From Narcine bancroftii (taxonomy: Eukaryota): a stretch of DNA of 64,000 nt. Of the stretch, positions 9,130 to 29,309 are shown piece by piece. The notes beneath the pieces are model-generated. The model made no database searches and was not told the DNA's origin. It was given only the letters and a program-made list of their open reading frames with translations. Numbering within the stretch: position 1 is the first letter of the stretch; the number at the start of each line of letters is the position of its first letter. Made by a program: the position numbers and the translations under genes. Where the stretch lies: positions 89,466,001-89,530,000 of the forward strand of contig NC_091480.1 of the NCBI RefSeq assembly GCF_036971445.1, written 5' to 3'.

Positions 9130-9325
9130 GGAATCAGAATTTACTGTCATGAACAAGTCAAGAAATTCAATGTTTTGTGGTAACATCATACTGCAAACAT
9201 TCATATTATAACCATCTTACAACTTAACTACATAAATAAAACAATAGTGCACAAAAAGTAAGGTAGTATCTTGGGTTCATTGATTATTTAGGAATCTGAT
9301 TGCAACAGGGAAGAAGCTGTCCCTG
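9130..9325 (-). mobile_element. Rex1/Babar LINE 3' end (left part of the host of the LTR insertion)
   Basis: gaatcagaatttactgtcat...aggaatctgattgcaacagggaagaagctgtccctg continues at 11830 as ccctgtgccactgagtgctc. An uninterrupted homolog lies at 59360-59655. Confidence 0.75.
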
Positions 9326-9577
9326 TGTGATAGTACATATCTATCACCAATGTACATAGTGTATATAGTAGTGTATATAGTTACTGTATCTAGACTGTGC
9401 TTATAGCGATTGGCTGAGAGCTAAGCCACACCCATTACCTGGGCCTTAAAGGGCTGTGTCCCTAGCCAGGTCGGATCATTCCGGACTGGTCGGCCACCTG
9501 TGAAGAGCTCCGGTCTTTTGCTAATAAAAGCCTTGGTTTGGATCAACAAGTCTTTGGTTCTTTCGACGAGCTCTACA
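9326..9577 (+). repeat. 5' LTR (252 bp)
   Basis: tgtgatagtac...gagctctaca, with AATAAA at 9523-9528 and an internal 12-bp tandem duplication (tagtgtatatag). Confidence 0.95.
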
Positions 9578-9612
9578 ATTTTATTAGCAAAAGAAAAATT
9601 TTTTTGAAAGGG

Positions 9613-10878
9613 ATGGAGCGTCTAATTAGGCCAGAAAAACTTGATATCGACCCACGGTCAGCTACAGCCTTCAAAGCCTTTAACTTCTGGCTGCTGAACT
9701 TTGAAAACTTCCTAAGGCTCATTGAGGTGGAGGAGGATAACCTGCGTCTAACAGCATTGCTGTCTATGGTGTCCTTGAGAGTCTACGAGAACATCCAGGA
9801 TGAGACCACTTACACCGCAGCCATAAAGGTACTGAAAGAAATGTATAACCAACCGGTGAACAGAGTTCATGCCCGGCTCGTGCTTGCATCGAGGAAGCAA
9901 CAGCCCGGTGAGTCCAGTAGGGCATATTTACAAGTATTGAAGGCATTGGGCAAGGACTGTAACTGTGTGGACAAAACTGCTGCCGAGATCACAAATGATC
10001 TCGTCCGGGATGCCTATGTGGCTGGGCTCAGATCAAATGAAGTGAGGCTGCGCTTGCTCGAACAAGGGGTAGAAAAACTAGAGGACGTGGCCCGGATTGC
10101 AATCACAATGGAGGATGCAGCCTTAAAGTCCACCGAGCTCTCTAGGGACTGGACCCCTCGCTCTGATGTGAGTAGAGTGCCCTTCTACCCTACCCCTGAC
10201 GGCCTGTCGGCTGCTGCTACCCTGCCCCGTGAGAACCCGAAATGTTATTTCTGCGGGAGGGACAAGCACAGCAGGTCCCAGTGCCCAGCAAGAAAAGCCA
10301 AGTGCCAGAAGTGCCTTAAAAACGGCCACTTTGCTGCAGTCTGTAGGTCTAAAATGGCCGCCGGCAAACACAGTGCCTCGTGTGAAGCTCAACCGCCACT
10401 ATCCCATTCAAACACTTCTTCCACAGAGCTCTCGTCCAATGAGAGCGAGGGCTCCCCTGCACGGCAACGCCTGACGTCACGGAGACGCCGAACCCGGAAG
10501 GGGCAGCCCACCCTCGCAACCATGGTGATGGCCCGCCTCTCGCCCCCGTGCGGGACACTCGACACTGCCGCCGCCACAGCCACCCGCGGGGCCGACGCTA
10601 CCGCCGCTGCTGCCGCCGCCACAGTCACCCCCGGGGCCGACGCTACCGCCGCTGCTGCCGCCGCCACAGCCAACCCCGGGGCCGACGCTACCGCCGCTGC
10701 TGCCGCCGCCACCGCCACCCCCGGGGCCGACGCTACCGCCGCTGCTGCCGCCGCCACCGCCACCCGCGGGGCCGACGCTACCGCCGCTGCTGCCGCCGCC
10801 ATCGCCACCCGCGAGTGCAGAGCTGCGACAGTACCTTCTGGAGTGTGGTATTGCTTCAAGCAGGACCACGAGCTATAA
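9613..10878 (+). CDS. gag: retrotransposon Gag-like protein, ending out of frame in the integrase remnant after the deletion junction
   Basis: ATG at 9613 (MERLIRPEKLDIDP), RKQQPGES motif and two CX2CX4HX4C knuckles (CYFCGRDKHSRSQC, CQKCLKNGHFAAVC). The ORF is uninterrupted. Confidence 0.85.
   Translation: MERLIRPEKLDIDPRSATAFKAFNFWLLNFENFLRLIEVEEDNLRLTALLSMVSLRVYENIQDETTYTAAIKVLKEMYNQPVNRVHARLVLASRKQQPGESSRAYLQVLKALGKDCNCVDKTAAEITNDLVRDAYVAGLRSNEVRLRLLEQGVEKLEDVARIAITMEDAALKSTELSRDWTPRSDVSRVPFYPTPDGLSAAATLPRENPKCYFCGRDKHSRSQCPARKAKCQKCLKNGHFAAVCRSKMAAGKHSASCEAQPPLSHSNTSSTELSSNESEGSPARQRLTSRRRRTRKGQPTLATMVMARLSPPCGTLDTAAATATRGADATAAAAAATVTPGADATAAAAAATANPGADATAAAAAATATPGADATAAAAAATATRGADATAAAAAAIATRECRAATVPSGVWYCFKQDHEL
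10576..10813 (+). repeat. GC-rich 45-bp minisatellite, 5 full units plus a partial unit, in frame with gag
   Basis: The unit acagccacccgcggggccgacgctaccgccgctgctgccgccgcc encodes TATRGADATAAAAAA. Confidence 0.95.
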
Positions 10879-11509
10879 CCCACGCGGTAATGGCCAGATC
10901 GAGAGGGAGAATGCCACTATATGGAGAGCGGTTACACTGGCTCTCCGGTCTAAAGGTCTCCCCACCTCTCACTGGCAGGAGGTTCTCAGTAGTGCCTTAC
11001 ACTCCATCCGCTCCCTCCTATGTACTGCAACAAATGCCACCCCCCACGAAAGGATGTTCCTTTTCCCGAGGAAATCCGAATCAGGAACCACTGTACCGGC
11101 ATGGCTCACCGTCCCTGGCCCCGTCCTTTTGCGACGCCACGTCCGGCACTCAAAGAACGACCCCTTGGTCGACCGGGTGACTCTACTCCACGCGAACCCA
11201 CATTACGCCTACGTTGGGTTCCCAGACGGGCGGGAGGACACTGTTTCGGTGCGGGACCTAGCTCAGGACGCGGGAGAACCAGCAAACACCCCAACCCAAC
11301 CTTCCCCAACTCTTTATTCTCCAGGCCCCGTGCCGCAGCAGAAGGACCAACCGCACCCGGGCCACCCTGCCGACAACACGACTGGGGAATTGAGCGACGG
11401 AGCAGTCGCACCCGACAAGCCCGCTGGCGACACCACTCCAGCGACCCCGATCCCGGCACCACGGCGGTCACACCGGATGGTCAGACCCCCTGACCGCTAC
11501 AGTCCTTGA
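10814..11509 (+). pseudogene. integrase C-terminal half (N-terminus deleted)
   Basis: The frame of ORF 11054..11509 extends upstream as SAELRQYLLECGIASSRTTSYNPRGNGQIERENATIW...ATNATPHER, including the catalytic E region. It continues PGPVLLRRHVR...GREDTVSVRDLA...RPPDRYSP. Confidence 0.88.
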
Positions 11510-11578
11510 CCTACCCCTTCCTTTCATTCTCTCCCTCGTTTTGTTTTTCCCAGGGTCAGTTCTCCAAGAAGGGGTGAA

Positions 11579-11829
11579 TGTGATAGTACATATCTATCAC
11601 CAATGTACATAGTGTATATAGTAGTGTATATAGTTACTGTATCTAGACTGTGCTTATAGCGATTGGCTGAGAGCTAAGCCACACCCATTACCTGGGCCTT
11701 AAAGGGCTGTGTCCCTAGCCAGGTCGGATCATTCCGGACTGGTCGGCCACCTGTGAAGAGCTCCGTCTTTTGCTAATAAAAGCCTTGGTTTGGATCAACA
11801 AGTCTTTGGTTCTTTCGACGAGCTCTACA
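11579..11829 (+). repeat. 3' LTR (251 bp)
   Basis: Identical to the 5' LTR except ctccgtc versus ctccggtc. Confidence 0.95.
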
Positions 11830-11834
11830 CCCTG

Positions 11835-18729: not shown

Positions 18730-19870
18730 CATTCCTGCTCTGTGGGTTCTGAGGTAACTAATGAGGCCAATGTGAGAATTGTGGACTCTTACACAGACAG
18801 TGCAGGTAATAACTGATTGGGGGGAACTGAGGTTGTTAATGTGTGGTTATAGGTTTCCTCCGTTGTATATGGTTATCATTGTCGATTGTATATATGGAGC
18901 TGGCCTGCCCACAGATGACTCATACCCTATGACTCCTCCCCCGTGGTCCTGGGCCACAAAGGTCGAGCCACCTTTCCCTTGCTGCCATTCCTATCCTGGG
19001 ATTCGGGCCAGCAAGGATCTTCTGTGTATTAAAGCCTATCGTTTCCTCAGCTTGTCTCTATGGTTACTGGTAGTGCCCTACAATGAGGTCTGATTTTTCA
19101 AGGCCTCCAAGTAGCCCTGAGGCATGGCTTCAAGGATAATATCATCCTGAATGGCTCTTCTCCATTTCGTGCAATCGTGGGTCATGGATTCCAAGGTGGC
19201 AGTGGGGATGTTGCTCTTCTAAGGCTCTGAGAATATTATTGAATCTTGTCCGCCGTCCATTTACCATGATTAAACTCTTTTACAGGTCTCTGCAGTTGGA
19301 CACGTGAACGACATGCCAGGGAACACTAGAATTGATTTCCTTATCCTTGTAGTAAGTTTCTATAGAGACAGGGTAATGGTGACATTTAGTGCCTCGAGAT
19401 GCCGGTTGTATGCAGTTCAGGACGCAGAAGCATAAAGTAGGGCAGAGATTACTGTTGTGAATAGAGCTTCACATCGCATCTGAGGTCTTGATCTGCAAAT
19501 ATATCTTCCTCAATTGACCAAAGGCTGCATTGGAGATTTGAAGATGATGGTAAATTTCACTGGTTTTACCAAGTAGTAGCTCCTGAGATATGGGAAGGGT
19601 TCATGTTTCCTCAGGTCTCATTATGATCCTGAATGCAGTGCAGCAAGGGCACGCTGAGAGATTTAGAGTCTACGGCTCGCCTTTAAAAGCATCATTGATG
19701 CCATCGATGATGGCTTAAGCTCACCCTCAGAACAGGTGCAAACTCGAGCCCTATCTGCATAACACTGTTCAAGTACTGAGGTAACCTGGAGTGTTGTCAC
19801 CATTGGACTAGCAGCATACTGTCAGTTCAGAAGATTAGCTTTACCTCTGCATGATGTTCATTTGAGCTGA
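18730..19870 (-). mobile_element. old RTE LINE remnant interrupted by a solo LTR
   Basis: The minus strand shows a decayed YADD-region (tatgcagatagggctcgagtttgc) near 19750 and C-terminal CTVCVRVHNSHIGLISYLRTH near 18740-18803. Confidence 0.6.
18833..19083 (+). mobile_element. solo LTR (251 bp), second family
   Basis: ttgttaatgtg...gtgccctacaa flanked by TGAGG on both sides (18828-18832, 19084-19088). ATTAAA followed by gcct sits at the same relative position as AATAAAAGCCT in the 9326 LTR. Confidence 0.7.
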
Positions 19871-22260: not shown

Positions 22261-23051
22261 TGTTGAATGTGGAGGAAACATGACCTCTCTGTCTGTCTAG
22301 AATGTGTATAATGCAGGTAGTCACGTGTCCTCCCCATCTGAAGCTTATTCGGAAGTCACGTCACCTGTCAATCAAGGTTGGAAGCCGTCCACCCATTAGC
22401 CCACACCTCGCTGTTGGGTAATTTAAATCACCTTGGGTCATTATTGACTAGAAGCACAGATTAACACTGTCCACGCTGCAGAAGATCCAGCTGCGCTGGG
22501 TGGGTCACGTCTCCAGAATGGAGGACCATCGCCTTCCCAAGATCGTGTTATATGGCGAGCTCTCCACTGGCCACCGTGACAGAGGTGCACCAAAGAAAAG
22601 GTACAAGGACTGCCTAAAGAAATCTCTTGGTGCCTGCCCCATTGACCACCGCCAGTGGGCTGATCTCGCCTCAAACCGTGCATCTTGGCGCCTCACAGTT
22701 CGGCGGGCAGCAACCTCCTTTGAAGAAGACCGCAGAGTCCACCTCACTGACAAAAGACAAAGGAGGAAAAACCCAACACCCAACCCCAACCCACCAATTT
22801 TCCCTTGCAACCGCTGCAACCGTGCCTGCCTGTCCCGCATCGGACTTGTCAGTCACCAACGAGCCTGCAGCAGACGTGGACATACCCCTCCATAAATCTT
22901 CGTCCGCGAAGCCAAGCCAAAGAAAAAAAAGAATCAAGTACAATTTAACATTCTCCCCATGTGTTAATTAAAGTTACATGTGATTGTAACACTGTGTCCG
23001 GACTCATCTCTCTGTGAAACCACCGAACCTGGTACTCTTCTCAACATGACA
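22261..23051 (+). mobile_element. solo LTR (about 330 bp net), third family, interrupted by an RTE
   Basis: tgttgaatg...caacatgaca has TG/CA ends and the 5-bp TSD GAGGG (22256-22260, 23052-23056). A TATA-like atttaaat precedes the RTE and ATTAAA follows it. Confidence 0.65.
22469..22932 (+). mobile_element. RTE LINE, 5'-truncated
   Basis: ORF 22500..22895 (GHVSRMEDHRLPKIVLYGEL...) followed by the standard 3' tail. Confidence 0.9.
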
Positions 23052-25083: not shown

Positions 25084-25801
25084 TTTGGGAGCACTCTTTG
25101 CCACTGTATGTGTGCTGTCACAGAATGAAGGAAGGTCCCATCAGATGAGTGGTTCACCCTCTATGACAAATAAGTAGCATTTTCCTCCAGAATCTATGGT
25201 GTGTGTTGCTCCCACCCAGTGCTGCTATCTGAGATCCATTTGTTGGCAAACCCTGCCAGATCAGTGTACGATTTGAAATGTCACCAAATAAACAAATTAA
25301 ATATGCTCCCTGTTGTTCTTGTTCCGTCCTTCGGTTGAGAATTATTTTTTAATCCCTCCATTAGTGTAAAGGCAAAAAGGCATGCTAAAAATCACAGCAA
25401 TAATTTTGCCTGCACTATGTACAGCCTTGATGAATTATGCAAAGATGCAGACAAGTATTATTTTTCTAAGACCTAGCTCAAACCAAAATGTGGGCCTCTG
25501 AGTTATTGCTTGGTACACAGAGCACCAATACTTTCCCCTCCCCCTCTTCTCAAATATACACATAAAAAAGTAACAGATGTTTAATGAAAGCATGAATGCT
25601 TTCCAAAGACATTTCAGAAATTGATTCAGAAAAAATATACAGTAAGTGGACACACCTGATATTAGATATTTCTCAACAGCGATCTATAACTCTTGAATAT
25701 TGCAATATATTAAAAAGGAAATGAACTGGGGACACCATGATTATCAAAATATTTGCAATAGAGTTTTACTTTTTTCTTTAAGGTCCCTATTTTATATTAT
25801 A

Positions 25802-26011
25802 CGTAGCGCGTCGAATGACTCAAACCAAGGCTTTTATTGGCTAACACTCCTATTACATCGAGGTCGACCAGTCCAGACTAACCTGGGTCTGGTGAGGAGC
25901 AGCCCTTTATGACCTGCCAGTGGGCATGACTATGGCTCTCAGCCAATCACTACGGCTATATGTAAATATATACAAATAGATACATTGGTGATAGTATCCT
26001 GTACTATCACG
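25802..26011 (-). mobile_element. solo LTR, diverged relative of the 9326 LTR
   Basis: The minus strand reads cgtgatagtacaggatactatcaccaatgta...gattggctgagagc...ccaataaaagccttggtttga...tcgacgcgctacg. Confidence 0.8.
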
Positions 26012-29069: not shown

Positions 29070-29309
29070 TGTGATAGTACAGATCTATCACCAATGTACA
29101 TAGAGTATATAGTTACTGTATCTAGACTGTGCTTACAGCGATTGGCTGAGAGCAAAGCCATGCCTACTGTCTGGGCCTTAAAGGGTTGTGTCCCTAGCCA
29201 GGTCGGATCATTCCGGACTGGTCGGCCACCTGTGAAGAGCTCCTGTCTTTTGCTAATAAAAGCCTTGGTTTGGATCAACAAGTCTTTGATTCTTTCAACG
29301 AGCTCTACA
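29070..29309 (+). mobile_element. solo LTR of the 9326 family (240 bp)
   Basis: tgtgatagtac...gagctctaca with the 5-bp TSD CCATT (29065-29069, 29310-29314). It lacks the 12-bp duplication seen in the 9326 LTRs. Confidence 0.95.

Follow-up and report, generated by a model that had tools for sequence, protein, structure and literature searches.

A primer site complementary to its own LTR points to self-primed reverse transcription in a chromodomain-less animal Gypsy clade

As judged from sequence, a primer-binding site that is complementary to a segment of the element's own LTR is a trait of a whole clade of chromodomain-less Ty3/Gypsy retrotransposons in animals, one member of which lies in the 64,000 nucleotides of Narcine bancroftii DNA analyzed here (hereafter the window). 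We think it probable that elements of this clade use a stretch of their own RNA as primer for reverse transcription, and the best reading of the data is that the primer is a 12- to 13-nt fragment with a predicted cut at AAA^RCC. Self-priming as such is a known mechanism that has been proven for Tf1 of fission yeast and is otherwise tied, in the literature covered, to the Tf1/sushi chromoviruses and one plant Copia lineage; what appears new is its setting, i.e., a signature of self-priming found throughout a compact, chromodomain-less, large animal Gypsy clade.

The window copy is a young, internally deleted Gypsy element

The copy at 9326-11829 is an internally deleted Ty3/Gypsy retrotransposon without chromodomain that carries TG..CA LTRs, a polypurine tract and a target-site duplication, all of them Ty3/Gypsy features (Table 1). 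Its LTRs are nearly identical and CCCTG is duplicated on both flanks, and the insertion is young. Because the LTR pair (one indel), the CCCTG flanks and the polypurine tract together delimit the element, the LTR end and the 1-nt spacer behind it were fixed without using the complement described below. The gag reading frame encodes two CX2CX4HX4C knuckles, which could be read directly in the window as the first-pass annotation had reported, and crosses a GC-rich 45-nt repeat at 10520-10816. Protease, RT, RNase H and the N-terminal half of the integrase are absent, with the C-terminal half of the integrase joined to the gag repeat; an RT query found zero matches across the whole window, and this copy would need RT supplied by another family member. 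Among full-length proteins, the nearest is P0017 (labelled Narcine bancroftii; 94% identity over gag), which has the Ty3/Gypsy order gag-protease-RT-RNase H-integrase in a single frame.

The repeat array sits between gag and protease, and the deletion begins in or just after it; in P0017, the corresponding version of the 45-nt repeat is in frame and forms an Ala/Thr-rich linker. We also note that four NCBI models of Narcine bancroftii (P0007, P0008, P0009 and P0019) fuse this gag to collectin-10, DNAJB13 and a BRCA1-like protein, which reflects either exon capture or annotation error.

Table 1. Features of the Gypsy copy and its flanks, in window coordinates
Feature	Position	Strand	Basis or remark
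Target-site duplication CCCTG, left, 5 bp	9321..9325	+	
5' LTR, 252 nt, TG..CA	9326..9577	+	single indel relative to 3' LTR
Candidate transcription start upstream of the arm: TTAAAG resembling TATA (9446-9451), exact Inr match TCATTC (9476-9481)	9446..9481	+	inferred
LTR arm, predicted self-primer; conserved core about 9516-9529; AATAAA at 9523-9528	9514..9529	+	
GCCT, the clade-conserved (A/G)C(C/T)(T/A) directly 3' of the arm; predicted cut 9529/9530	9530..9533	+	cut inferred
1-nt spacer between LTR end and primer-binding site	9578..9578	+	A in 25/27 families
Primer-binding-site position, complement of the arm	9579..9594	+	family variants: none listed in 9579-9592
Gag reading frame; two CCHC knuckles at about 10243-10344; stop past the deletion	9613..10878	+	
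Integrase, C-terminal half, without chromodomain	10817..11509	+	frame differs from gag
Polypurine tract	11566..11578	+	
3' LTR, 251 nt; identical arm copy at 11766-11781	11579..11829	+	
Target-site duplication CCCTG, right, 5 bp	11830..11834	+	

A perfect 16-nt complement of the LTR occupies the primer-site position

One base past the 5' LTR, the sequence TTTTATTAGCAAAAGA at 9579-9594 is, as the first-pass annotation had described, the exact reverse complement of 9514-9529, and the duplex allows no extension on either side. This complement occurs once in the window and the LTR arm three times (at 9514, 11766 and 29246), and the AATAAA inside the arm is the sole AATAAA/ATTAAA of the window LTR. 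When the 23-mer downstream of the LTR was compared with 1,258 other 252-nt windows, at most 12 nt matched, and sliding along the window gave matches of at least 16 nt at 64 of about 63,300 positions. Together with the covariation across families described below, this test ruled out a chance complement or single-copy accident. The isolated fold of 9480-9640 has no unusual stability relative to shuffled sequences (z -0.54), and the arm-site duplex is present in both its MFE and its centroid structure.

Variation within the family was assessed by comparing contigs of four public runs with positions 9300-9760. No variants at 2% or above are listed in 9513-9540 or 9573-9592 and the first is found at 9593, so the primer site is a trait of the family, and about 14 nt of it form a conserved core. 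The 16-nt duplex is thus exact in the window copy, whereas its conserved part measures about 12-14 bp. Loose contig ends at 9522 and 9586 (in run X1, 42 at either position; in X9, 5 and 10, respectively) show a sister family in which changes of arm and site mirror each other; as the two ends are on separate contigs, their linkage is assumed.

Two further contigs of run X1 connect the LTR end (9577-9579) to the LTR start at 9326, and one of these, a single contig that passes via 9579 plus AA, would fit unprocessed cDNA ends, a two-LTR junction and priming at the duplex start, although we would not put much weight on it. In run X5, two sister-LTR contigs become A-rich about 16 nt past the hexamer (window position 9540), which might hint at a poly(A) site; this run is classed as RNA by guess only, as are X6, X8 and X10.

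Arm and primer site covary across the clade

Metagenomes were searched with a gag alignment, and the best 80 of 213 matches (34-54% identity to the first sequence of the alignment) were used; with the window element, these 80 metagenome loci give 81 loci that fall into 31 families at 80% gag nucleotide identity. Many of the metagenome loci come from one assembly, so families and not loci are the meaningful count. Within this set of the best 80 of 213 matches plus the window element, the site that follows a CA at one base's distance has its pairing partner in an LTR arm located 24-66 nt upstream in 27 of the 31 families. No duplex was found in the other four, which are L017 (with only 36 nt of upstream sequence), L043, L046/L076 and L064/L065. 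A score of at least 11/12 was reached at 63/81 loci compared to 0/301 control positions within coding sequence, and the LTR end is confirmed by a 3' LTR in seven families.

The sequence of the arm itself is highly variable, with 26 distinct 11-mers among the 27 family representatives. Nevertheless, 211 of 216 pairs at positions 4-11 are Watson-Crick, as against 124 on average and never more than 150 when the sites were permuted 10,000 times among families, meaning that arm and site do covary among relatives as the first-pass annotation had anticipated. The register of this comparison had first been picked on pairing; it was reset using positions 1-6 and the boundary motifs only (65 loci in 26 families), and pairing with the family's own site at positions 7-12 then amounted to 90-98% vs 24-78% across families. 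In the reset register, pairing falls from 78% to 55% over positions 13-16 and is at background from position 17. Swapping in the site of the nearest family lowers the number of pairs at positions 7-12 from 155/162 to 90/162.

As a held-out test, five extra loci (L081-L085) were fetched later and judged by the same rule. Two of them, L081 and L083, represent new families and have duplexes of 14 and 17 bp. L082, which has an arm identical to that of L025, failed the strict rule (GTC after the arm) with a duplex that is visible by eye, and the primer-site region is absent from L084 and L085. These five loci are, like P0181 and P0198, clade members in contigs filed as bacterial MAGs, most likely because of host DNA in the bins.

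Relatives of the window element also share its lack of a conventional tRNA primer site, another point on which the first-pass annotation proved right, given that TGG was found within 0-5 nt of the LTR end at 0 of 67 registered loci. An unrelated LTR element in L037 (6101-13696) served as control and has a TGG site with a self-complement of only 4 bp; the clade member of L037 is nested inside this element. One could still argue that the duplex is regulatory only and that a tRNA, half-tRNA or tRNA fragment primes at or near the site, similar to the half-tRNA use that exists in plant Copia lineages (excerpt of PMC6317226). We consider this highly improbable in view of the missing TGG, of 26 different sites that each match their own LTR and of a duplex start that is fixed one base from the LTR end. 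ARAGORN found no tRNA in the window, and an Rfam search gave no match at the primer site and a single chance-level match overall.

Proteins of the clade are labelled as coming from sharks and rays, a sea anemone, a sea cucumber, nematodes and an insect. Gag clusters related to the clade number 5,325 at E 0.001 or better, a search of the ESM Atlas returned only unnamed arthropod gag clusters, and four scans of viral contigs yielded no relative. Some distant gag proteins with N-terminal read-throughs appear compatible with a duplex and were dropped as too degenerate to count; likewise, a 53-sequence gag alignment was set aside as search query for being too diverse.

The conserved boundary is AAA followed by RCY and not the poly(A) hexamer

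The arm ends in AAA in 25 of the 27 families and is then followed by purine-C-pyrimidine in 26 (+1 purine in 26/27, with G in 20 and A in six families; +2 C in 26/27; +3 C in 24/27), while the primer site opens with TTT in all 27. An AATAAA or ATTAAA lies inside the arm in 18/27 families and is missing from it in 9/27, and one held-out family has GGTAAA instead of a canonical hexamer. At the sequence level, the near-invariant feature is therefore AAA^(A/G)C(C/T) and not the hexamer. The earlier view that the paired segment is the poly(A) signal itself thus applies to the window element and to two-thirds of the families (18/27) though not to the other nine, and the idea that the duplex masks the poly(A) signal of the 5' LTR finds no clade-wide support. 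Starting from the first base past the arm, a stem of at least 4 bp is formed in 20/27 families vs 5.4 expected; in the window element, this stem is weak (3 bp, p 0.76).

The candidate transcription start of Table 1 includes a TTAAAG whose likeness to a TATA box was judged by eye, a scripted TATAWAWR pairing having failed, plus an exact Inr that precedes the arm end by 52 nt. When the families are compared, the best fit to the Inr-like motif TCAKTY (as defined in an excerpt of PMC3601003) places its +1 at 11 nt before the arm end, which equals the primer length of Tf1, with 7/27 families within one mismatch and at most four at any other offset. The window element has three mismatches at this 11-nt offset and the exact Inr at 52 nt instead; two sister LTRs (47-48 nt) and L007 have near matches 45-48 nt ahead of the arm end. 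With an Inr at 52 nt here and at 47-48 nt in the sister LTRs, the arm may therefore not be the 5' end of the RNA, unlike in Tf1.

These observations bear on a variant of our best explanation that comes close to the idea of the first-pass annotation. According to this variant, transcription starts about 50 nt upstream and the arm is a poly(A) signal within R, so that pairing with the site would hide the 5' hexamer and set up the primer at the same time. We regard it as possible yet rather doubtful. It would be in line with the exact Inr at 9476-9481 and the near matches in the sister LTRs and L007, with the hexamer in 18/27 arms (and as the only one in the window LTR), and perhaps with the two A-rich sister-family contigs of run X5. 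On the other hand, the arm is without a canonical hexamer in nine of 27 families, the cross-family Inr optimum lies at 11 nt (7/27, even if the window element has three mismatches there), and a long primer offers no natural point at which copying would stop after 12-13 nt. A poly(A) signal close to the cap is usually weak, so masking it may be unnecessary in the first place. In its most far-reaching form, the scenario would be that a non-chromovirus animal Gypsy clade invented self-priming independently, using its poly(A) signal as primer with the arm in R, a cut after the hexamer at a stem-held AAA^RCC and a fold that also silences the 5' poly(A) site, and we advance this combination only tentatively.

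Three solo LTRs in the window share parts of this layout. The one at 29070-29309 belongs to the window family (94%), is flanked by CCATT on both sides and contains the arm without a primer site. Those at about 25794-26011 (minus strand) and about 18835-19082 are of other families, have an AAA with GCCT directly behind it about 50 nt ahead of their end and are likely of the same clade. An LTR-like stretch at about 22280-22468 has TTTAAA followed by TCACC.

A predicted path from duplex to primer

The first-pass annotation had suggested tRNA-independent self-priming, and apart from poly(A) masking this suggestion agrees well with the signature at the primer site, its covariation, the lack of TGG at 0/67 loci and the lack of a chromodomain. 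In the mechanism that we favor, the arm (about 12-14 nt ending in AAA) would fold in vivo onto the site one base past the LTR end. Cleavage of the RNA would then take place at AAA^(A/G)CC, by analogy with Tf1 most likely through the element's own RNase H. The cut would leave a 3'-OH from which RT could copy U5 and the remaining R. Later on, the primer would itself be copied into the plus strand, rewriting the primer site from the arm and keeping both in step. For Tf1, the RNA's first 11 bases anneal to the primer site, the RNase H cut falls between bases 11 and 12, and the primer site is copied at the cDNA's 3' end (excerpts of PMC7175516 and PMC11042837).

Single copies of the clade provide a possible trace of such copying. 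Many have uncompensated mismatches, and in L016, whose family is otherwise near-identical, one substitution is found in both LTR arms together with the matching change in the primer site. This linked change and the mismatches at position 14 that persist in several families fit the copying of a 12- to 13-nt primer, a trace seen mainly in one copy.

Two other routes would produce the same duplex without a cut in the 5' leader. The primer could be the 3' copy of the arm, with the RNA 3' end trimmed to the duplex, or short LTR transcripts acting in trans. Covariation is blind to which arm copy pairs, the arm is also present in the 3' LTR and in solo LTRs, and the site begins with TTT in 27/27 families. 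We nevertheless find this route unlikely because the conserved stem behind the arm (20/27 families vs 5.4 expected) suggests a defined junction 3' of the arm and because the 5' arm is only 24-66 nt away from the site.

Alternatively, nothing would be cut and RT would start from the 2'-OH of the conserved purine behind the arm. This is how retrons work, whose RT starts at the end of the a1/a2 duplex from a 2'-OH, and the layout is indeed alike, with a duplex, a conserved purine (26/27) that opens a stem and a template just 5' of the second arm. However, this purine is mixed in the clade (G in 20 and A in six families), the clade's RT is of the usual Ty3/Gypsy type and comes with RNase H, and a 2'-5' joint would hardly allow the arm to be copied into the site as L016 suggests, all of which makes a 2'-OH start barely credible to us.

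If self-priming by a cleaved piece of the element's own RNA is real in this clade, tRNA-free priming either has more than one origin or goes back further than assumed, and such elements would evade any control that acts through the supply of tRNAs or through tRNA fragments. Annotation tools that demand a tRNA site would miss or mislabel them, and the families of this clade are presumably catalogued as plain Gypsy elements.

Comparison with known systems

Self-priming has been tied to Tf1/sushi elements, Tcn1 and plant TAR elements in the accessible parts of the literature (PMC3601003, PMC6317226, PMC13524379, PMC6238403, PMC4600332, PMC7472051, PMC5341516, PMC7175516, PMC10085805, PMC11117352, PMC5006619, PMC6934838 and PMC11042837). 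Within these parts of the open-access literature, we found no report of self-priming in a non-chromovirus animal Gypsy clade, and an earlier note may exist in Repbase, GyDB or subscription papers. Searches with motifs of the clade for a named relative gave none in supplements (text files, including PMC8556966) or open full text.

In an RT tree against four unnamed RTs only, the clade is monophyletic (100/100) with the shark and ray proteins nested among metagenome families; one row of this tree, L070_other, was disregarded, being a broken fragment from within the clade that sits on a long branch.

Among the established Gypsy lineages, a gag with double CCHC is Mag-like, and Mag elements are tRNA-primed. 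The clade has a single gag-pol frame, a short LTR and two CCHC knuckles, and by these traits it resembles Mag elements. Fish members of the Mag lineage (A, B and C clades; MolGy3, MolGy11) are likewise short elements with a short LTR and a single gag-pol frame (excerpt of PMC11117352). Skipper of Dictyostelium, fungal GalEa and bivalve TRIMs are LTR elements without a TGG site, too, but the available portions of the papers describing them (PMC5006619, PMC6934838) mention no LTR segment that would complement the primer site, a feature that the clade does have. Gmr1-like elements are set apart by an integrase before RT (excerpt of PMC3601003), which is the opposite of the order found here. For Houba and Osr-1 of the plant Ty1/Copia TAR lineage, self-priming was similarly predicted from complementarity between LTR and primer site (excerpt of PMC6317226), yet TAR elements have plant hosts and the Copia domain order, whereas the integrase of the clade follows RT and RNase H.

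The closest match in layout is with Tf1/Tf2 of Schizosaccharomyces pombe, Tj1, Tosmo, Tcry1, the Tf1/sushi chromoviruses and plant Tcn1, which share with the clade the lack of a tRNA site and an LTR segment that finds its complement just past the 5' LTR. The duplex of Tf1 measures 11 nt (excerpt of PMC7175516), compared to a conserved core of 12-13 nt here. Differences from Tf1/sushi elements include the arm ending in an AATAAA-like hexamer and a gag with two CCHC knuckles. Moreover, a Pfam search of 31 polyproteins at E 0.05 gave no chromo family among the 25 of 26 families listed (the 26th holds at most one member), in agreement with the first-pass annotation, which had seen no chromodomain after the integrase. 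Tf1 RNA adopts a "pretzel" of three duplexes (excerpt of PMC10085805), but Tf1-type flanking duplexes do not rise above shuffles over the 27 families (summed helix 249 vs a null mean of 257, and 339 vs 327 with 29/200 shuffles as high), and the clade instead has an LTR-internal stem that starts at the very first base past the arm. On the chromodomain and pretzel tests, the clade is thus not a member of Tf1/sushi, though it would work like Tf1.
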